Below, piece by piece: positions 1-7,082 of a DNA stretch of 7,871 nucleotides. Position numbers and translations under genes: made by a program. The stretch lies in assembly GCA_023136205.1 (NCBI GenBank), contig JAGLRQ010000113.1, positions 1 to 7,871 on the forward strand, given 5' to 3'. The stretch comes from Candidatus Auribacterota bacterium. GTDB taxonomy: Bacteria; Auribacterota; UBA6266. The number at the start of each line of letters is the position of its first letter. The first letter of the stretch is position 1. The notes under the pieces were generated by a model that was given only the letters and a program-made list of their open reading frames with translations, was not told where the DNA came from and did not search any database.

Positions 1-720
1 TCAAAAGAAATCAATCTTCCGTTTTTTAAGAGTTTAATCGAAAAACTTCCTTTTGTCACGGTTAAGTCCGCTGTTTCTATGGATGGTAAAATAGCGGCAA
101 AAACAGGAGATTCTAAATGGATTTCTTCAATTGAATCAAGAAAATACGGCCATTTATTAAGGAAAGAGGCGGATGCGGTTCTTACCGGGATTAATACTGT
201 AATCAAAGATGACCCCTTGTTTACCGTAAGACATGTTAAAAGTGCAAAGGATATTATAAGAGTAATTGTTGATACAAATTGCCGTTTGCCTTTGGAAAGC
301 AATATTGTGCGCAAGCGGCCGGAATTGACTTTGGTTGCTGTCGGGAAAGATATTGCAAAAACAAAAATCAAAAGATTGAAAGATCTTGGGCTGGAAGTCC
401 TGGAGGTTGATAGGGATAACAGCGGGAAGATCAACCTGAAAAAATTGCTCAAAATACTTTCAGCCAGGGGTATTAATAATATTCTCTGCGAATCCGGAGG
501 TTCTTTGACAGCATCTCTCTTTAAGAACAAGCTGGTTGACCGCATCGTGTTTTTTATATCCCCAATGATTATTGGGGGCAAAGATGCTCCTACAGCGGTG
601 GAAGGCAACGGGGTGAAGAAAATCGATTCCGCCGTAAAAATAGAAAACACAAAGATGAAAAAATCAGGGGGAGATTTTATGATTACCGGTGATGTTAACA
701 CGGAATGGAGGAATTTTTAA
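1..720 (+). CDS. ribD: Riboflavin biosynthesis protein RibD, C-terminal 5-amino-6-(5-phosphoribosylamino)uracil reductase domain; 5'-truncated by the window edge
   Basis: Frame 1 is open from base 1 (SKEINLPFFKSLIEKLPFVTVKSAVSMDGKIA...), so the ATG at 79 is internal. The PFVT-K-x-A-x-S-x-DGKIA motif, the SR..GH.LR...DAVL.G..TV..DDP.FTVR block and the CE.GG.L..SL block match the RibD reductase domain layout. Stop TAA at 718-720. Riboflavin synthase follows directly. Confidence 0.85.
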   Translation, partial: SKEINLPFFKSLIEKLPFVTVKSAVSMDGKIAAKTGDSKWISSIESRKYGHLLRKEADAVLTGINTVIKDDPLFTVRHVKSAKDIIRVIVDTNCRLPLESNIVRKRPELTLVAVGKDIAKTKIKRLKDLGLEVLEVDRDNSGKINLKKLLKILSARGINNILCESGGSLTASLFKNKLVDRIVFFISPMIIGGKDAPTAVEGNGVKKIDSAVKIENTKMKKSGGDFMITGDVNTEWRNF

Positions 721-722
721 GA

Positions 723-1358
723 ATGTTTACCGGGATAATAGAGTCTGTTGGCGTTATTTTAAGAATTGGAAAAAAATCAGGGAATCTGGAAATTGAAATA
801 GAGGCTTTGAATTTCCTTGATGATGTCGGGATTGGCGACAGTATATCTGTAGATGGAATCTGTTTAAGCGTTTGCAGTAAAACGGGTGAGTCTTTTTGCG
901 CAAACCTTCTTGCTGAAACCGTAAAAAGATCTACATTTGATTCGGCATGCGCAGGCCGAAAGGTAAACCTGGAAAAATCTTTGAAATCCGGATCGCGTTT
1001 CTCAGGGCACATAGTTACGGGACACGTTGACGAAACGGGAGAAATTCTGGAAGCAAAAAATTATTCCGGAGATATGGAGTTAAAAATAAAAATCCGTCCG
1101 GAGACTGTAAAATATATTGTGGAGAAAGGTTCTGTTGCTGTAAACGGTGTTAGCTTAACAGTGGTAAATGAGGGGAAAGATTATTTTACGGTTCGGCTGA
1201 TTCCTTTGACAGCGGGAAAAACGAATTTAGATAAAGTTCGAAAGGGTAACAAGGTAAACATAGAAGCCGATATTCTTGCTAAATATGCCGCTAAAGCATC
1301 CGGCAGGAATAAACCATCTAAAATAACCCTCAAGTTTCTCAAAGAAAAAGGTTTTTAA
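723..1358 (+). CDS. ribE: Riboflavin synthase (alpha chain)
   Basis: The canonical N-terminus MFTGIIE begins at ATG 723, with GGAGG at 708-712 about 10 nt upstream. The track start at 705 only adds MEEFLR. The duplicated lumazine-binding repeat layout is present (GDSISVDGICLSV... and GSVAVNGVSLTV...). It can be laid alongside E. coli riboflavin synthase from memory (GHxxxGHV, LIPxT, VNIExD). Confidence 0.9.
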   Translation: MFTGIIESVGVILRIGKKSGNLEIEIEALNFLDDVGIGDSISVDGICLSVCSKTGESFCANLLAETVKRSTFDSACAGRKVNLEKSLKSGSRFSGHIVTGHVDETGEILEAKNYSGDMELKIKIRPETVKYIVEKGSVAVNGVSLTVVNEGKDYFTVRLIPLTAGKTNLDKVRKGNKVNIEADILAKYAAKASGRNKPSKITLKFLKEKGF

Positions 1359-1375
1359 TAAAAAAGGGCCCGTTA

Positions 1376-2224
1376 GTGTACCGCTTTGTAAAATCTTGCA
1401 TTGTATTTTTAATAGTTTTTCATGGAGTTTTTTTCTTTTCATCCTTTTCCCGCTCCTCGGATGATTTAAGAATTGTATGTCTTTCTCCCGCCGCAACAGA
1501 AATATTATTTGATCTGGGTGCGGATAAGTGGCTTGCGGGAATTACAAATGAGTGTGATTATCCTCCCGCGACAAAAGGTATCCCGAAAGTCGGAACCTTT
1601 TCGAATCCTTCCGTTGAATATATTCTCGAAAAGAATCCGGATATAGTAATAACTGACGGGCTCGAACAGCAGATCATGGCTTATAATCTGCGGAAATTCG
1701 GGATAAAAACCCTGACTATTTTTCCATCGGATTTTGAAGGCCTGTTTGACGCGTATATTAAAATCGGAGATATATGCGGACTTAAAAGGGAAGCCCTTGA
1801 AAAGGTAAGGTTAATGAAAAATGATATTGGCCGGGTTCTTAAAAAAGTTAAACATCTTAAAAAAAAGCCTCAAGTATTTGTTGAGATCTGGAGTAAACCT
1901 TTGATAACAGCAGCAAAAGGTTCACACATAGATGAAGTTTTAAGGTTAGCAGGAGGAATTAATATTGCCTATAATTGCCCCCGTCCTTACAGTAGAGTCA
2001 GCCCCGAGCTTGTTATAATTTCTAATCCTGATATAATTGTTCTCGCCTATAAAGATGAAAGTAATATCGGTTTGAGGGAAGGCTGGCAGAATATTAATGC
2101 TGTTAAAAAGGGGTTTGTCTGCAATGACATCAATCCTGATTTTCTTGTAAGAGCCGGGCCCAGACTGATTGAGGGTCTGGAAAAACTGCGTAAACTTATA
2201 GAAAAATGGGATATGCAAAATTGA
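1376..2224 (+). CDS. btuF: Periplasmic substrate-binding protein of a BtuF/FecB-type (TroA-like cluster A) ABC importer; most resembles cobalamin-binding BtuF
   Basis: GTG start with AAGGG 7 nt upstream and a hydrophobic signal peptide. RIVCLSPAATEILFDLGA..LAGIT..CDYPP, KP.VFVEIWSKPLITAAKGSHIDEVLRLAGG.N, SPE.VI..NPDIIV and R.GPRLIEGLE..R match the BtuF layout as I recall it from E. coli. Aromatic residues (VGTF, RPYSRVS) sit where E. coli BtuF has its corrin-stacking Trp residues. Substrate assignment is an inference; an iron-siderophore or heme substrate is not excluded. Confidence 0.72.
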   Translation: MYRFVKSCIVFLIVFHGVFFFSSFSRSSDDLRIVCLSPAATEILFDLGADKWLAGITNECDYPPATKGIPKVGTFSNPSVEYILEKNPDIVITDGLEQQIMAYNLRKFGIKTLTIFPSDFEGLFDAYIKIGDICGLKREALEKVRLMKNDIGRVLKKVKHLKKKPQVFVEIWSKPLITAAKGSHIDEVLRLAGGINIAYNCPRPYSRVSPELVIISNPDIIVLAYKDESNIGLREGWQNINAVKKGFVCNDINPDFLVRAGPRLIEGLEKLRKLIEKWDMQN

Positions 2225-3201
2225 AGAAAATAACAGTGATATTATTAGTTGCTCTTGTAACAGCGGGTTTGTTCATGACATCCCTTCTTGTGGGCCCCGC
2301 GGATATTAATATTGGTAATATTTTTGATTATTTTTGCGGGAAATATAACCCGGTTATTCACCTGAGGTTTATGAGAGCCTGTATGGCAGTGATATCCGCT
2401 GCCGGCCTTTCAGCAGCCGGGGTATTTTTGCAGGGGTTGTTGCGAAATCCTCTTGCCGGCCCGTATATCCTCGGCATATCCGCCGGCTCAGCAATCGGCG
2501 CGGTAGGTGCAATTTGCTGCGGGCTCGGCACAGCTTTTATATTGCTTCCAGTACCTATGGTATGCGCGTTTATTGGCGCAATCATTACAATAATTGTTGT
2601 TTACAGGTTAGCTCTTAAAGACGGAAATCTGTCTGTTCAGAATCTAATACTTGCCGGAATTGCAGTTAATTCTCTACTTTCCAGCGTATTGCTTTTTGCA
2701 ATATACTCTTCAAAAAATGAAGCGATAAACGGCATAATCTGGTGGCTGCTCGGAAGTTTACAGGTTTTTGATATTAGGATAGTTTTGTTTTCCGGGGGTA
2801 TTGTTTCGGCTTCTATTTTACTTGCTATCCCTTTAACAAAGGAATTAAATGCTGTTTCCATAGGTGATGACCTGGCAACATATGTCGGGATAAAAGTTGA
2901 ATGGATTAAAACCATTTTCTTTGTTCTTTCAGGAATTATGACAGCTGCTGTTGTGTCCAGTGTTGGAATGATCGGGTTTGTCGGACTTGTTATTCCTCAT
3001 ATAACAAGGAAGTTGTTCGGCCCTGATATCAGGGTTCTTTTACCGGCATCTGTAGTAATCGGTTCAGGATTTCTGCTTATTGCCGACATGCTTTGTAGAA
3101 TTCTCTTTATTCCGGCCGAATTGCCAATAGGAATTGTAACATCTCTGGTAGGGGCGCCGTTTTTTATTTTTATCCTGGTCATCACGAGGAAAGGTTCATG
3201 A
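2206..3201 (+). CDS. FecCD/BtuC-family ABC transporter permease (iron-chelate/cobalamin uptake type)
   Basis: 331 aa, highly hydrophobic and multi-spanning, with Gly/Ala-rich helices typical of FecCD permeases (LRNPLAGPYILGISAGSAIGA, GMIGFVGLVIPHI.R, LP.GIVTSL.GAPFFI.IL). Overlaps the PBP stop by 19 nt. An alternative TTG start at 2221 would give a TTGA-type overlap. The end overlaps the ATPase start (ATGA at 3198-3201). Confidence 0.85.
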   Translation: MGYAKLKKITVILLVALVTAGLFMTSLLVGPADINIGNIFDYFCGKYNPVIHLRFMRACMAVISAAGLSAAGVFLQGLLRNPLAGPYILGISAGSAIGAVGAICCGLGTAFILLPVPMVCAFIGAIITIIVVYRLALKDGNLSVQNLILAGIAVNSLLSSVLLFAIYSSKNEAINGIIWWLLGSLQVFDIRIVLFSGGIVSASILLAIPLTKELNAVSIGDDLATYVGIKVEWIKTIFFVLSGIMTAAVVSSVGMIGFVGLVIPHITRKLFGPDIRVLLPASVVIGSGFLLIADMLCRILFIPAELPIGIVTSLVGAPFFIFILVITRKGS

Positions 3202-3965
3202 AAAATAATATTCTTGAATTAAAAGATGTAACGGCGGGATATGGTTCCAAAGAGGTTCTTAAAAACATTTCCTTCTTCGTAAAAGAAGGGTCTTTTACCG
3301 GTATAATCGGGCCAAACGGTTCGGGAAAATCAACTCTTGTTAAAACTCTGGGGAACTTTTTAAAACCAGACAGGGGAATCATTTATTACCGCGAAACCGA
3401 TGTCAGGAATATAACTCATAAAGAATATGCGAAGAAAATCACTGTAGTTCCTCAGGAAACAAAAACTGTTTTTGACTATACTGTCAGGGATTTTGTAACT
3501 ATGGGCAGGTATCCATATACGGGATTCTGGGGCACACTGTCAAAAGAAGACACAAAAGAAATCGAAGAAGTTCTATTTACAACTGGGCTTAATAAGTGTT
3601 GCGCGAAAAACATTAATGAAATGAGCGGGGGAGAAAAGCAGATGGTTTTTCTCGCAAGAGCCCTCTGTCAAAAAACTTCTCTGATAGTCCTTGATGAGCC
3701 GCTAACCTTTCTTGATATTAAACATCAAAAAATAATCATACACATCCTTGAAAAGTTCAACAAAGAAAAAGCCCTTACAGTACTGATGGTTGTACATGAT
3801 ATAAATACAGTTTTGAAACACTGTACCGATACAATAATTCTGAATGAAGGAAGTGTTTACGCTTCGGGAAACACAGAGGCAACAGTAAACAAAGAAACAA
3901 TCCGCGAGATATTTGAAACAGAAGTTGAATTTGTTAAATGCGGAGACAAAAACTTATTTTTCTGA
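3198..3965 (+). CDS. ABC transporter ATP-binding protein, BtuD/FepC/FhuC family
   Basis: Walker A GPNGSGKST, signature MSGGEKQ, Walker B LIVLDEP and H-loop VVHDIN. AGGAAAGG RBS upstream. ATGA start/stop overlap with the permease. Confidence 0.9.
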   Translation: MKNNILELKDVTAGYGSKEVLKNISFFVKEGSFTGIIGPNGSGKSTLVKTLGNFLKPDRGIIYYRETDVRNITHKEYAKKITVVPQETKTVFDYTVRDFVTMGRYPYTGFWGTLSKEDTKEIEEVLFTTGLNKCCAKNINEMSGGEKQMVFLARALCQKTSLIVLDEPLTFLDIKHQKIIIHILEKFNKEKALTVLMVVHDINTVLKHCTDTIILNEGSVYASGNTEATVNKETIREIFETEVEFVKCGDKNLFF

Positions 3966-3971
3966 TCATGT

Positions 3972-4631
3972 CTATTGTTTTATCTCAAAAACAATATTAG
4001 TGTTAAACCCTATTTCAGATTGGCCTATTTCTTTTGGAAATTTTGGAAAGAGTTTCGAAGCTTCTTTTAATACTGCTATAGCGGCGGGGGAAAATACTTC
4101 GTCAGTTGTTCTAATTACCTCAATAAAAGTTACTCTTCCTTTTTTGTTTAAATAAAAGAGTATTGTTACTTCTCCTGATACAAGCTCTCGTTTTTTTGCT
4201 TCTTCAGGAAAGTAATCTAAGGTAATTTCTGCTATAATACTATTCAATTGTTTTTGGTACTGTCTAACAAGTACAATCTGTGATGCAAATTCTTTTTTGG
4301 CTTTTTCAAGGGTTTTTCTTGATTCTTCTTTTTCAACTTCTTTTTCAGGCTGAGGTTTAATGATTTTTTTTGCCTGGGCTTTTTTTATCTGTTCCTTCTT
4401 TTTATCCTTGTTTTTTACATGAACAGAGGATGTTATTTTTGGTATTTTGATTTGCTCGGGCTGAAGCTCCGGAAATTGCGCGTAATAAAGAAGAACTTCA
4501 AGGTATTTATCCTTTTTGTTCTTAGATGCAAGCATTCTTAAAGTCGGCGATGCGCCCAGTACTATCAGGTGAATCGAGATCGAAATAAAAAATGAAAGCA
4601 ATAATAATCTATTTCTGAAAAAAGCTGCCAT
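3972..4631 (-). CDS. tonB: TonB-family energy transducer (N-terminal anchor with SxxxH motif, Lys/Glu-rich linker, TonB_C domain)
   Basis: The anchor RLLLLSFFISISIHLIVLG carries S-I-S-I-H, matching the E. coli TonB S-V-C-I-H (SxxxH) motif. The C-terminus YFPEEAKKRELVSGEVTILFYLNKKGRVTFIEVIRTTDEVFSPAAIAVLKEASKLFPKFP fits the TonB_C pattern (YP..A....G.V.v.F.i...G.v........s.....aA..a......P.P). I prefer the ATG at 4631 (purine-rich AGAGAGA upstream) over the track's GTG at 4703, which lacks any SD. That start would add a 24-aa non-TonB-like extension through a GC-rich hairpin. Confidence 0.8.
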   Translation of the reverse strand: MAAFFRNRLLLLSFFISISIHLIVLGASPTLRMLASKNKKDKYLEVLLYYAQFPELQPEQIKIPKITSSVHVKNKDKKKEQIKKAQAKKIIKPQPEKEVEKEESRKTLEKAKKEFASQIVLVRQYQKQLNSIIAEITLDYFPEEAKKRELVSGEVTILFYLNKKGRVTFIEVIRTTDEVFSPAAIAVLKEASKLFPKFPKEIGQSEIGFNTNIVFEIKQ

Positions 4632-4803
4632 AATTTCTCTCTTTGTGAATCGTATAAAAGCCGTATGTAGTCCCCTCAGGGGAGGCTGCGCTACGCTTCG
4701 CACTATCTTGTGAATTGATTAAATACTACACAACAAGTGTGCTATTAACAAGTGTCAAATATATTAATATCGAAATTTTAATAAAATTTAACTGAATAAA
4801 TTC

Positions 4804-4831
4804 TTGACATAACAGAAAAAGAGTATAAAAT
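4804..4831 (+). promoter_or_regulatory. Sigma70-like promoter of the riboswitch-controlled operon (TTGACA-16 nt-TAAAAT)
   Basis: Perfect -35 TTGACA at 4804-4809. -10 TAAAAT at 4826-4831 after a 16-nt spacer. It lies about 30 nt upstream of the riboswitch aptamer. Confidence 0.6.
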
Positions 4832-4861
4832 GATGCCGACTTTTGTTCTTTAATTTTTAGT

Positions 4862-4960
4862 TATGGTTTTCAGTGTCAGGGAAATCCCGTGAGAGCCGGG
4901 AGCTGGGCCGCAGCTGTAATCGGTGTAAAACCGTAAGCCAGAATACCTGTCTGAAAAAAA
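4862..4960 (+). promoter_or_regulatory. Cobalamin (B12) riboswitch aptamer, Rfam RF00174-like
   Basis: B12 box AAGCCAGAATACCTGTCT at 4935-4952 matches the consensus rAGYCMGgAgaCCkGCcd at 15 of 18 positions. Core cAGGGAAatCCCGTGAGAGCCGGGAGCTGGGCCGCAGCTGTAA at 4877-4919 parallels the conserved AGGGAA...GGTG.(A)A.CC...GC.GC..CTGTAA layout. Closing helices are TTTTCAG(4867-4873)/CTGAAAA(4951-4957) and CAGG(4877-4880)/CCTG(4946-4949). There is a peripheral hairpin CGGT-gtaaa-ACCG at 4921-4933. Boundaries are approximate. Confidence 0.88.
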
Positions 4961-4994
4961 TTTAATCTTCTCCGGAACCGAGAAAAGACGAAGG

Positions 4995-5028
4995 CCCGTT
5001 CTCACAAAAAGGAGAAACGGGTTTTTTT
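4995..5028 (+). terminator. Intrinsic terminator forming the riboswitch expression platform (transcription attenuation)
   Basis: Stem CCCGTTCTC (4995-5003) pairs with GAGAAACGGG (5012-5021) with one bulged A, followed by T7 at 5022-5028. It lies between the aptamer and the RBS (AAGGAG 5053-5058) of the ORF starting at 5066. Confidence 0.8.
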
Positions 5029-5065
5029 GTTGTCTGAAACCGGAGGCAACGAAAGGAGCAGTTAG

Positions 5066-5983
5066 ATGTGTAAGTTTTTATTGAGCAGTTTTTTGGTTTT
5101 GTTGTGTGTATCGCCTCTTGCTTTTTCAGAGGTAGCTTCATGGACTGAGGATTTCAGCAGCCCTTCCGGATGGACATACGAAGGGGAAACAGGGACTCAG
5201 CTTTTTACCCATAATGGGACTCAGGGCAATGTTAACGCGCTATGGAAATCAGATAAGAGCACCAGCCGCTATTACAAGAGCTTGGGCGGAAGTATAACAG
5301 AATCAAGTTCTTTCTCTTTCGGGTGTGATTTACAGATAAACGATCTGGTACAGAACCCTTGGGGTATGCAAATTGGTTTTGGCCTTTTTAATACCGCTAA
5401 TACCGGTGATAACAGGGTAGGTTATTATGACGGAGACTGGGGTTACCATAGTGGAAATACTATAAATACATTTGAATTAAGTTATTTCCCTTATCAAGAC
5501 GGATGGGGAGGGCCATGGTTTGGAGGAACCATAATGCCCGAGGTTGATAATGAGCCTGGCGAACCCGGGAATCAGGTCAAGATTGTTTATTCCGGCGAAA
5601 CTGTCACATATAAAACTGTGGGATTTGACGAAGGGGCACTCCCTTACGATGCTTGGCTGTACACAGAAGCTACATACGACGGAAGCTCTAAAGAAGCGCT
5701 TTTTAGCATATATACCAACCAAGAAAAAACAACACTTCTATCTGTAAACGGACAGATAGCTCAGTCTTCCTTTATTTATACCGGAGACGCTTTCTCGGTA
5801 GATGCTTTAGGGTTTTTTAGTTATTACGATTATCTGGACAGTACCCCTGTTTCTCCTTCACTTAGTGGTGTTGGCATTTTTGATAATGCTTACTTTAATG
5901 TGGTTCCGGAACCTTCCAGTTGGATATGCTTTACCTTAGGGCTGGTTTCACTATGGTGTTTTAAAAGAAAGAAAACCGCATGA
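5066..5983 (+). CDS. Secreted PEP-CTERM-anchored protein of unknown function, aromatic/Gly-rich; a beta-sandwich fold is a guess
   Basis: AAGGAG RBS 7 nt upstream. Signal peptide MCKFLLSSFLVLLCVSPLAFS|EV. The C-terminal sorting signal VPEP-SSWICFTLGLVSLWCF-KRKK (nt 5903-5980) is a textbook PEP-CTERM: motif, TM helix, basic tail. The mature region is rich in W/Y/G (GDWGYHSG, DGWGGPWFGG). It starts W.EDF and ends IFDNAYF, reminiscent of LamG/concanavalin-like modules. I recognise no characterised family. Confidence 0.8.
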   Translation: MCKFLLSSFLVLLCVSPLAFSEVASWTEDFSSPSGWTYEGETGTQLFTHNGTQGNVNALWKSDKSTSRYYKSLGGSITESSSFSFGCDLQINDLVQNPWGMQIGFGLFNTANTGDNRVGYYDGDWGYHSGNTINTFELSYFPYQDGWGGPWFGGTIMPEVDNEPGEPGNQVKIVYSGETVTYKTVGFDEGALPYDAWLYTEATYDGSSKEALFSIYTNQEKTTLLSVNGQIAQSSFIYTGDAFSVDALGFFSYYDYLDSTPVSPSLSGVGIFDNAYFNVVPEPSSWICFTLGLVSLWCFKRKKTA

Positions 5984-6771
5984 AAAAAAATATCCCGTTA
6001 GAGATTAAAGAAAAAAATTGTGTTTTATCATCTCTAACGGGATTTACATTAATTGAATTACTGGTTGTTATCGCGATAGCCTCTCTCATGATATCTTTTC
6101 TCCTGCCCGCGTTGCTGGAGGCAAAAGAAACAGCCAAAAAATGTGTCTGTATTTCTAATTTAAAACAGTTATATCTTGCGACAAGCCTTTACCTTCAGGA
6201 TAACGATGATGTTTTTTTCCCGCATTACGTCAAAAAAGGAGCAGATAGGTTGTGGTGGTTTGGCTATGAACCAAATTTCAATACCGGTATACCTGAAGGA
6301 AGCAGAGAAATTTATCTGACAAAGTCTTTTTTATACCCCTACATAAGAAACATAGGGGGTATCGAAAAATGCCCTTCATTTAACTATAATGACCCCAAAT
6401 GGAAACCAAAATTTAAGTGTGCTACATATGGTTACGGTTATAATTCCCTGGGCCTCCAGGAGAAGAAGACCAGTGAAATAAAGGATTTAGCAAACACAGT
6501 ACTTTTTGCGGACTGCGCTCAGATTAATACATTCCAGGCACCGGCATCACCAACTAACCCCATGATTGAAGAGTTTTATTATATAAGCCCTTATCCGTTT
6601 GAAAAGCTGATTCACTTCAGGCACAATGGTTTGGCAAATGTCCTTTTCTGTGACGGCCACATTGACGCTATGAGACCTTTTCCCGGAACTGAAGATCCAA
6701 AAGGAAAGCAAATCGGACACATAGTCGGCAGAATCAACCCACCCGCGGATTTCTCCATGTTTAATTTATAG
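5980..6771 (+). CDS. Prepilin-type N-terminal cleavage/methylation domain protein with H-X9-DG motif (DUF1559-type pseudopilin-like protein)
   Basis: Leader MKKNIPLEIKEKNCVLSSLTG, then FTLIELLVVIAIASLM: a class III signal with G|F cleavage and Glu at +5. The NLKQLYLATSLYLQDNDD block is typical of DUF1559. HNGLANVLFCDG at nt 6622-6657 is an exact H-X9-DG. Its ATG overlaps the upstream stop (ATGA at 5980-5983), implying translational coupling. Confidence 0.85.
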   Translation: MKKNIPLEIKEKNCVLSSLTGFTLIELLVVIAIASLMISFLLPALLEAKETAKKCVCISNLKQLYLATSLYLQDNDDVFFPHYVKKGADRLWWFGYEPNFNTGIPEGSREIYLTKSFLYPYIRNIGGIEKCPSFNYNDPKWKPKFKCATYGYGYNSLGLQEKKTSEIKDLANTVLFADCAQINTFQAPASPTNPMIEEFYYISPYPFEKLIHFRHNGLANVLFCDGHIDAMRPFPGTEDPKGKQIGHIVGRINPPADFSMFNL

Positions 6772-6780
6772 TAAAAATTC

Positions 6781-6809
6781 TTGACATACATTTCCTCTTT
6801 ATTTAAACT
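6781..6809 (+). promoter_or_regulatory. Sigma70-like promoter upstream of rpsU (TTGACA-17 nt-TAAACT)
   Basis: Perfect -35 TTGACA at 6781-6786 and -10-like TAAACT at 6804-6809 after a 17-nt spacer. It shares the 14-mer AAATTCTTGACATA with the riboswitch promoter. Confidence 0.5.
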
Positions 6810-6899
6810 TCAAATCTCTCTAATGTTTTTGCTAGGACATGTATATAGAGGTTTCATTGATAAGATGATATATAATATTACGAAGGGTGGTGAAGAAAA

Positions 6900-7082
6900 T
6901 TGCCATTAGTACGCGTTAGAAAAGGTGAGCCTGTTGACAGAGCCCTCAGGCGCCTGAAGAAAAAAATAGATAAAGAAGGCATAATGAAGCAGGTGAAACA
7001 GCATCGGCACTATGAAAAGCCTGGGGTAAAAAAACGCAGAAAACAGAAGGAAGCGAAAAAGAAACGAAGAAAGATGAGTTAA
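6900..7082 (+). CDS. rpsU: 30S ribosomal protein S21
   Basis: [49 protein letters not shown] parallels E. coli S21 ([47 protein letters not shown]). TTG start at 6900, with GGGTGGTG purine-rich RBS upstream. Basic C-terminal tail. Confidence 0.92.

Follow-up and report, generated by a model that had tools for sequence, protein, structure and literature searches.

The described systems closest to the one reported here are the Btu loci of Bacteroides thetaiotaomicron, in which riboswitch-controlled surface lipoproteins (BtuG, BtuH, BtuJ, and BtuK) feed cobalamin (vitamin B12) to BtuB and then to BtuF-BtuCD (PMC13616437, PMC13398666). We analyzed a stretch of 7,871 nucleotides (nt) from a Candidatus Auribacterota bacterium (contig JAGLRQ010000113.1; hereafter the window) in which a cobalamin riboswitch stands in front of two overlapping open reading frames (ORFs), ORF1, a PEP-CTERM protein, and ORF2, a pseudopilin of the H-X9-DG type. 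We are almost certain that the riboswitch controls this gene pair, and we think it probable that the two proteins form a module that is induced by B12 limitation and acquires corrinoids at the cell envelope.

The locus resembles the Bacteroides Btu systems in several respects: a cobalamin riboswitch is expected to repress accessory cell-surface proteins when B12 is sufficient, several unrelated binder folds appear to be interchangeable, there is linkage to BtuF/BtuCD, and the DUF4465/BtuJ family is shared. It differs from them in that the surface protein carries a PEP-CTERM tag rather than being lipidated, there is no BtuB or other TonB-dependent receptor and no BtuG propeller in any operon examined here, ORF1 is not homologous to BtuG, BtuH, BtuJ, or BtuK, and the constant partner is an H-X9-DG pseudopilin, which is unreported in any Btu system. 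The leader has the conserved core, B12 box and terminator platform found in many btuB and cob leaders, and in this it is like the riboswitches of RF00174 and the short Cbl-II-type aptamers (clan member RF01689). However, the genes behind it fall outside the regulon classes listed in the original prediction, i.e., biosynthesis, btuB/btuFCD, B12-independent isozymes and BtuG-type lipoproteins. The original prediction for this locus, made from the sequence, held that neither protein family had been tied to B12, and our full-text literature searches agree with this, as none of the papers returned connects cobalamin or a cobalamin riboswitch with proteins of the DUF1559, H-X9-DG, prepilin or PEP-CTERM types.

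The promoter, B12 aptamer and box, terminator, ribosome-binding site and overlapping ORFs of the original prediction were all located where it had placed them, and the match to RF00174 on the + strand that it expected was obtained. The aptamer (4847-4968, + strand) scored 47.5 bits against a gathering score of 31.5 (E 1.1e-9); the match spans the whole model (positions 1-189) and is the sole gathering-level Rfam match in the window. The B12 box AAGCCAGAAUACCUGUCU at 4935-4952 aligned to the B12-box columns of RF00174, in which AAGCCAGAAUACCUGUC falls, and the GGGAA and GCCGCAGCUGUAA core is present and invariant across four Auribacterota lineages. R1, a covariance model that we built from verified aptamers, scored 89.7 bits at 4839-4968.

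The window aptamer is a short form of 122 nt. Its peripheral P6 region, 59 positions long in the model, is replaced by 5 nt, and it thus lacks the P6 extension of class-I adenosylcobalamin (AdoCbl) aptamers. The leader of the ortholog in the Auribacterota locus L007 had its best match to the AdoCbl-II model (RF01689; E 7e-6), although its 32.7 bits are below the cutoff of 36.5. Based on these two observations, we consider the window aptamer to be a short, class-II-like form that still belongs to clan CL00101. The Auribacterota aptamers as a group are 122-134 nt and without the P6 extension (window 4847-4968; L007 1311-1407), whereas those of the verrucomicrobial sister operons are full-length at ~185 nt, and the ligand selectivity of the two forms may differ. 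The aptamer of L018 (1892-2143) is 252 nt with a large insertion; R1 scored it at 91 bits, and two scans gave no Rfam match to it at the gathering threshold.

Control of the gene pair is supported by the conservation of the riboswitch in front of it. The aptamer, terminator and gene pair are all kept in L001, L003, and L007, which with the window make up every Auribacterota lineage having upstream DNA (4/4), with ORF1 identities to the window of 83, 56, and 59%, respectively (about 55-83%). The leaders of these loci scored 47.1 bits (L001) and 34 bits (L003) with RF00174, and 78.5 bits with R1 (L007), and their alignment retains the aptamer core, the terminator and two bracketing elements, UCUCCGG and CCGGAGG, that are considered below. 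Outside the Auribacterota, the two closest homologs of ORF2 (57 and 52% identical) are directly behind RF00174 matches of 123.5 and 110 bits. Between riboswitch and pilin, L010 encodes a PEP-CTERM homolog of ORF1 (28% identity over 278 amino acids (aa), E 6e-16), while in L009 the pilin follows the riboswitch directly.

To extend the comparison we took 80 genome loci, sampled purely by ORF2-subfamily similarity, from the 488 matching genomes, which are mostly from the Verrucomicrobiota but include Planctomycetota, Kiritimatiellia and Auribacterota. R1 found a strong aptamer match (54-153 bits) in 51 of the 80 loci, in every case upstream of the pilin and on its strand, and no matches elsewhere in the 583 kb of these loci on either strand. 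When only the loci with 2.8 kb or more of upstream sequence are counted, the proportion is 44/62. From the riboswitch to the start of the pilin gene the median distance was 1223 nt, equal to one intervening gene. Rfam alone placed RF00174 upstream on the same strand in 13/20 ORF2-sampled loci, and it re-confirmed 19/20 R1-positive loci. Sampling by ORF1 gave the same picture: in all three loci with DNA (L092, L093, and L094) an aptamer scoring 100-112 bits lies 150-180 nt 5' of the ORF1 homolog (3/3), and the gene immediately 3' of the homolog encodes an H-X9-DG pilin with 34-36% identity to ORF2. In three further contigs, which were assessed by gene layout only, the gene following the ORF1 homolog encodes 253-297 aa, with an N_methyl match in one of the three. 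The expectation of the original prediction that related gene pairs would carry the riboswitch was therefore borne out in both samples as well as within the Auribacterota.

These data also bear on the possibility that the riboswitch is real but is a chance or lineage-specific neighbor of the pair, its position being without functional meaning, or that it is a decaying relic. The truncated form and modest score of the window aptamer (47.5 bits), and the fact that the adjoining btuFCD genes have no riboswitch, could be read in that way. However, the trio of riboswitch, PEP-CTERM protein and pilin is conserved in several phyla, its placement is one-sided and on the same strand (51/80 loci, with zero matches elsewhere), and the terminator and Shine-Dalgarno context are conserved as well. 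These features exclude chance juxtaposition and refute this explanation for practical purposes, and we regard its probability as negligible. As an aside, six of the sampled loci (L048, L080, L085, L086, L059, and L062) are from metagenome-assembled genomes labeled Bifidobacteriaceae, Anaerolineales, Armatimonadetes or Akkermansia muciniphila, but have a Planctomycetes-Verrucomicrobia-Chlamydiae-type operon on high-G+C contigs; these are likely binning or labeling errors.

A sigma-70-like promoter on the + strand, TTGACA (4804-4809), a 16-nt spacer and TAAAAT (4826-4831), has 11/12 consensus matches and is the best in the region; the site (4804-4831) is kept in L001. The promoter scan overall was not enriched over shuffles (10 sites found vs. 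7.9 expected). The intrinsic terminator (4995-5028, + strand) is formed by CCCGTTCTC (4995-5003) and GAGAAACGGG (5012-5021), followed by seven Ts (5022-5028). Its stem is of 9-10 base pairs and G+C-rich, it is the dominant hairpin in both the single-sequence and consensus folds, and it is conserved in the consensus fold with one compensatory pair. It was read directly from the sequence, since its 8-nt loop and bulge lie outside the rules of the automatic scan, from whose output it was absent. The sequence TTCTCC (4968-4973) is complementary to GGAGAA (5011-5016) in the 3' arm of the terminator and so is a candidate antiterminator. In addition, UCUCCGG (4969-4975, + strand), which is invariant in all four Auribacterota leaders, is predicted by the RNAalifold consensus to pair with CCGGAGG (5040-5046, + strand). 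This predicted pairing encloses the terminator, and in L003 and L007 it covers the Shine-Dalgarno sequence of the ORF1 ortholog, which is CCGGAGG itself; in the window the Shine-Dalgarno sequence of ORF1 is AGGAG (5054-5058, + strand), 7 nt 5' of the ATG at 5066. The bracketing UCUCCGG and CCGGAGG elements suggest combined transcriptional and translational control. We also considered by eye a kissing-loop interaction between the aptamer loop L5 (GUGAGAG) and the terminator loop (UUCUCAC), and rejected it, as the complementarity is lost in L001, L003, and L007.

ORF1 (5066-5983, + strand) encodes 305 aa, comprising a signal peptide (residues 1-21), a predicted β-sandwich domain of ~255 aa and a PEP-CTERM anchor (residues 280-302, nt 5903-5971). 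The C-terminus, VVPEPSSWICFTLGLVSLWCFKRKK, was read directly as VPEP, a transmembrane segment and KRKK. With TIGR02595 the protein scored 18.1 (cutoff 16) and, having a signal peptide as well, it qualifies as a PEP-CTERM protein, although the Pfam model PF07589 fell just short (19.7 vs. 20.7). Only five close relatives were found in 5.8 billion proteins, all of them on syntenic contigs, and the wider family has 287 representatives at E<1e-3, with members of ~300-330 aa. Its conserved motifs are EDFxSDP, FGLxNSxxTGxDRxG, vEFxYFPN, LP, and the C-terminal VPEP, which is nearly invariant.

An AlphaFold2 model of ORF1 from a 21-sequence alignment is an all-β sandwich (predicted local distance difference test score, pLDDT, 74.8; predicted template modeling score 0.75); it superseded a run on a 6-sequence alignment that we discarded (pLDDT 41). 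Foldseek searches of the Protein Data Bank (PDB) with the model returned legume/L-type lectins, the carbohydrate-recognition domain of Emp47p and bacterial adhesin lectin modules at E ~1e-7, with template modeling (TM) scores of 0.45-0.62 and identities of 10-14%. The fold of ORF1 thus models as ConA/L-type-lectin-like. Unlike the L-type lectins, ORF1 has no Pfam lectin match and no evidence of sugar- or metal-binding residues, and its genomic context points to B12, not glycans; comparison of the ORF1 profile with PDB sequences gave one short, spurious lectin stretch only. We also considered ORF1 as a divergent DUF4465 (PF14717) protein, and dropped this assignment because there was no Pfam match, no PDB sequence match and an hhalign probability of 0.4%.

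When the ORFs of all loci were clustered, the dominant architecture was the riboswitch, one or two PEP-CTERM proteins of the ORF1 family (F1) and the pilin. Elsewhere, one of three other PEP-CTERM families takes the slot that separates riboswitch and pilin: F9 (~225 aa), F10 (repeat-rich, ~340 aa), and F24, which is a DUF4465 domain with a PEP-CTERM tail. Comparison by hhalign revealed no relationship among the four families. The F24 proteins, which occupy the slot in L036, L055, L061, and L069, match DUF4465 in Pfam with E-values of 1e-48 to 1e-54, and an F24 protein matches PDB entry 9HMU with E 2.9e-31. That entry is a crystallized B12 complex of the protein D5EK51 from the verrucomicrobium C. 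akajimensis (PMC13398666; PMC13616437). DUF4465 is the jelly-roll B12-binding domain of BtuJ1/BtuJ2 in Bacteroides, and in vitro B12 binding is reported for DUF4465 proteins from both verrucomicrobia and planctomycetes (PMC13398666). A published analysis of DUF4465 neighborhoods lists ABC transporters, TonB-dependent barrels, propellers and binding proteins, and pilins are not among them. Some riboswitch-controlled operons also include genes for transport. The order in L033 is riboswitch, ORF1-family protein, pilin, BtuF and a BtuD-BtuC fusion, and in L073 it is riboswitch, ORF1-family protein, DUF6580, BtuF and pilin. In two Chthoniobacter/Spartobacteria operons an OprB-family porin follows the pilin and DUF6580 (L026 5404-6567; L027 5321-6511), and could possibly provide an outer-membrane route. 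Most of the genes 3' of the pilin encode unrelated housekeeping functions (GH10, CysS, carbamoyl-phosphate synthase, amidohydrolase), indicating that the core operon ends at the pilin.

The original prediction offered two roles for the pair, corrinoid scavenging and starvation-induced adhesion to B12 producers, and the comparative context favors the first. In the second, a lectin and a pilus would form a device made under B12 limitation that attaches the cell to B12-producing neighbors or hosts and binds no vitamin. The resemblance of the ORF1 model to L-type lectins and to adhesin lectin domains such as those of SraP and Aap, the pilin-like nature of ORF2 and the fact that the Auribacterota and related lineages are little known are all in keeping with such a device. 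However, it leaves unexplained why DUF4465 B12 binders occupy the slot of the ORF1 family and why BtuF, BtuCD, and DUF6580 are encoded in riboswitch-controlled operons, and the lectin matches are at the level of the fold only, with 10-14% identity. We therefore favor scavenging, and judge an adhesion role to be quite improbable.

Several further features of the sister operons were recorded. DUF6580 (PF20221) membrane proteins are encoded in or beside a number of them (L026 4757-5407, L027 4725-5324, L073 2488-3039, L036 ~4750-5409, L059, and L089), and are candidate inner-membrane corrinoid transporters; no paper mentioning DUF6580 was returned by full-text literature searches. DUF6580 genes are also the divergent neighbors of riboswitch-less variants of the operon. 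In these variants (L015, L016, L021, L051, and L081; e.g., L016 2548-5098) a DUF6580 gene on the - strand is separated by ~90 nt from an F9 PEP-CTERM gene and a pilin gene on the + strand, and the convergent 3' genes encode a small cytochrome-c-like protein and a 246-aa protein (family F15). The latter had no Pfam or NCBIfam match, and we guess it to be an outer-membrane barrel. NCBIfam gave no name for DUF6580, F10, F15, or the unknowns of L009 and L010. A Cys-rich CWC and DUF5522 protein is encoded immediately 5' of the pilin gene in L059 and L062 (3213-4013) and in L089 (3600-4043), and in protein P0088 the CWC and DUF5522 part is fused to the pilin. In L010 (6327-12304) the riboswitch, PEP-CTERM and pilin genes are followed by those for a 540-aa WD40/PQQ-like β-propeller, a 620-aa unknown, a double ABC ATPase and CbiQ (an energy-coupling-factor-type module); neither the β-propeller nor the F10 protein has sequence similarity to the solved BtuG structures. 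Lastly, L032 has two matches to the Acido-Lenti-1 small RNA (RF01687) just 3' of the pilin gene (2386-2430 and 2622-2666, - strand).

ORF2 (5980-6771, + strand) encodes 263 aa, and its start overlaps the ORF1 stop by 4 nt (ATGA). It has a prepilin-type leader and a globular domain of the H-X9-DG/DUF1559 type. The prepilin signal, LTG/FTLIELLVVIAI (G/FTLIE, the slash marking the cleavage site), is of class III, with predicted cleavage at G21/F22 and Glu at +5, and the N_methyl region (nt 6040-6102) scored above the cutoffs of PF07963 (21.4 vs. 21.2) and TIGR02532 (22.3 vs. 16.3). The protein was below the cutoffs of the DUF1559 model PF07596 (19.1 vs. 23.3) and of the H-X9-DG model TIGR04294 (16.4 vs. 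19). However, H215-x9-D225-G226 (nt 6622-6657) is invariant in the alignment of the ORF2 subfamily, and PF07596 is present in homologs with 45-57% identity, to which the Joint Genome Institute (JGI) gives the name of H-X9-DG proteins. On these sequence grounds ORF2 is a divergent member of the H-X9-DG/DUF1559 family.

The homologs of ORF2 number in the thousands. ORF2 shares with the DUF1559 (PF07596, SBP_bac_10)/H-X9-DG (TIGR04294) proteins of the Planctomycetota, Verrucomicrobiota and Lentisphaerota the class-III signal, a length of ~250 aa and the C-terminal H-x9-DG. It differs in belonging to a tight subfamily with riboswitch linkage and with extra invariant motifs, NTFQAPAS, NPM[LI]EEFYY and HFRHNG, the last as part of HFRHNGxANVLFCDGH. 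In this subfamily ~50 columns beyond the pilin helix, including two Cys and three His, are invariant or nearly so, which indicates a constrained function of the globular domain. We know of no function or ligand assigned to the family at large. The pseudopilins of type II secretion and competence (GspG/GspH and ComGC) have a similar N-terminal helix and processing signal, but the globular domain of ORF2 is unrelated to theirs, the solved pilins and pseudopilins in the PDB match the subfamily profile at the N-terminal helix only, and there are no genes for an assembly ATPase, platform or secretin near ORF2. Competence pseudopili offer an example in which pilins drive a ligand inward; to our knowledge, vitamin import by a pseudopilus has not been described.

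The PEP-CTERM protein alone might handle B12, with the pseudopilin acting as a dedicated type-II-secretion-like piston or adaptor that exports or displays its partner and has no inward role for the vitamin. Consistent with such an export function, a PEP-CTERM protein of one family or another always accompanies the pilin, the N-terminus of ORF2 matches GspG/GspH-type pseudopilins, and JGI names the H-X9-DG proteins "prepilin-type processing-associated". On the other hand, the partners belong to four unrelated folds or families and yet the globular domain of the pilin is highly conserved, which would be surprising in an adaptor specific for its cargo; the pilin of L009 is directly behind the riboswitch; and PEP-CTERM sorting is normally credited to exosortase, not to pseudopili. 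We therefore consider an export role unlikely. A bolder proposal is that H-X9-DG/DUF1559 pseudopilins are nutrient-capture and import devices, the riboswitch-linked subfamily forming a retractile or piston-like corrinoid carrier that spans the passage through the outer envelope and replaces the TonB-dependent BtuB route. In that case the corrinoid may be bound directly or may be passed on by the interchangeable PEP-CTERM surface binders. We regard this carrier role as possible, but doubtful.

Our favored reading, corrinoid acquisition by a riboswitch-controlled surface module, would operate as follows. The region 4804-6771 would be a B12-repressed transcription unit with OFF-switch logic, in which binding of a corrinoid to the aptamer favors the intrinsic terminator, backed by the conserved pairing that could occlude the ribosome-binding region. 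Corrinoid scarcity would then lead to expression of two translationally coupled envelope proteins. ORF1 would be exported and presumably anchored on the cell surface through its PEP-CTERM tag by exosortase, and its lectin-like β-sandwich may capture corrinoids in a manner analogous, but not homologous, to the jelly-roll BtuJ/DUF4465 proteins. ORF2, after processing by prepilin peptidase, would form or tip a short pseudopilus, and this would move either the corrinoid or loaded ORF1 inward from the cell surface in the direction of the periplasm, where the neighboring BtuF-BtuCD importer could complete uptake. This specific division of labor between ORF1 and ORF2 is tentative, and we would put it at somewhat below an even chance. 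As a whole, the system looks like riboswitch-regulated B12 scavenging with a new architecture, i.e., exosortase-type anchoring, no operon-encoded BtuB and a constant pseudopilin.

A number of observations weigh against this reading. By sequence, ORF1 is not detectably related to DUF4465 or to other proteins known to bind B12, and the fold matches of its model are carbohydrate-binding lectins at moderate TM-scores. Of the loci with 2.8 kb or more of sequence upstream, ~30% have no riboswitch, and one clade (L015, L016, L038, L049, L052, and L081) has ~90 nt only ahead of the PEP-CTERM gene. Within the leader, the minimum free energy of the full sequence is unremarkable relative to shuffled sequences (z -1.6), and the pairings of the platform are invariant, so covariation gives them no support. 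Finally, the btuFCD genes of the window are outside the control of the riboswitch, and no exosortase, prepilin peptidase or secretin genes are visible in the window; exosortase (EpsH/Xrt) was also absent from the compared loci of up to 17 kb.

A protein 99% identical to one of the window bears the name Candidatus Aureabacteria/Auribacterota, in keeping with the origin of the contig. The operon that the original prediction called non-canonical is not isolated: a btuFCD-like transporter and a TonB-like gene directly adjoin it. The importer genes, all on the + strand, are btuF-like (1376-2224; Pfam Peripla_BP_2, best NCBIfam match BtuF), btuC-like (2206-3201; Pfam FecCD, best NCBIfam match BtuC) and btuD-like (3198-3965; Pfam ABC_tran, best NCBIfam names corrinoid/heme/FecE-type ATPases). 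All are below the NCBIfam equivalog cutoffs (BtuF 89.5 vs. 234, BtuC 218.7 vs. 461, BtuD-type 122 vs. 281), and their B12 specificity is suggested by context, namely that the L033 operon holds the same families. They are preceded by the C-terminal part of ribD and by ribE (from 79, + strand), and these run into the importer genes with overlaps or nearly so (79-3965). No FMN or cobalamin riboswitch is present within the window ahead of the ribD-ribE-btuFCD genes, and the putative B12 importer is therefore apparently not riboswitch-controlled, unlike the adjoining surface pair. Between the importer and the riboswitch, a gene for a TonB C-terminal-domain protein (3972-4703, - strand; PF03544 30.2 bits vs. 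a cutoff of 24.6, TIGR01352 28.8 vs. 27.1) is divergent from the riboswitch promoter region, a synteny kept in all the Auribacterota loci (L001, L003, and L007), although the window has no TonB-dependent receptor. Downstream of ORF2, rpsU (6900-7082) has its own promoter-like site, TTGACA-17-TAAACT, at 6781-6809. As there is no terminator between ORF2 and rpsU (6771-6900), a part of the transcription of the riboswitch operon may continue into rpsU.

Few unexplained families of the Planctomycetota and Verrucomicrobiota are as expanded as the DUF1559/H-X9-DG proteins, of which a genome encodes tens to hundreds, and many PEP-CTERM proteins are equally opaque in function. The presence of a ligand-specific riboswitch before one subfamily of each provides a concrete hypothesis, that both take part in corrinoid acquisition. 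If this is true, it would show by what means the members of these phyla that are abundant in soil, in freshwater and in association with the gut compete for B12 when the operon encodes no BtuB, and the idea of a surface relay would widen from the lipoproteins of the Bacteroidota to proteins anchored by exosortase. A further implication would be that other nutrients are served by other DUF1559 paralogs. Should the pseudopilus prove to be the corrinoid carrier, this would be the first assignment of a ligand to DUF1559 and the first pilus-mediated vitamin uptake system, and if the pseudopilin itself is the translocation device, the system could be categorically new.

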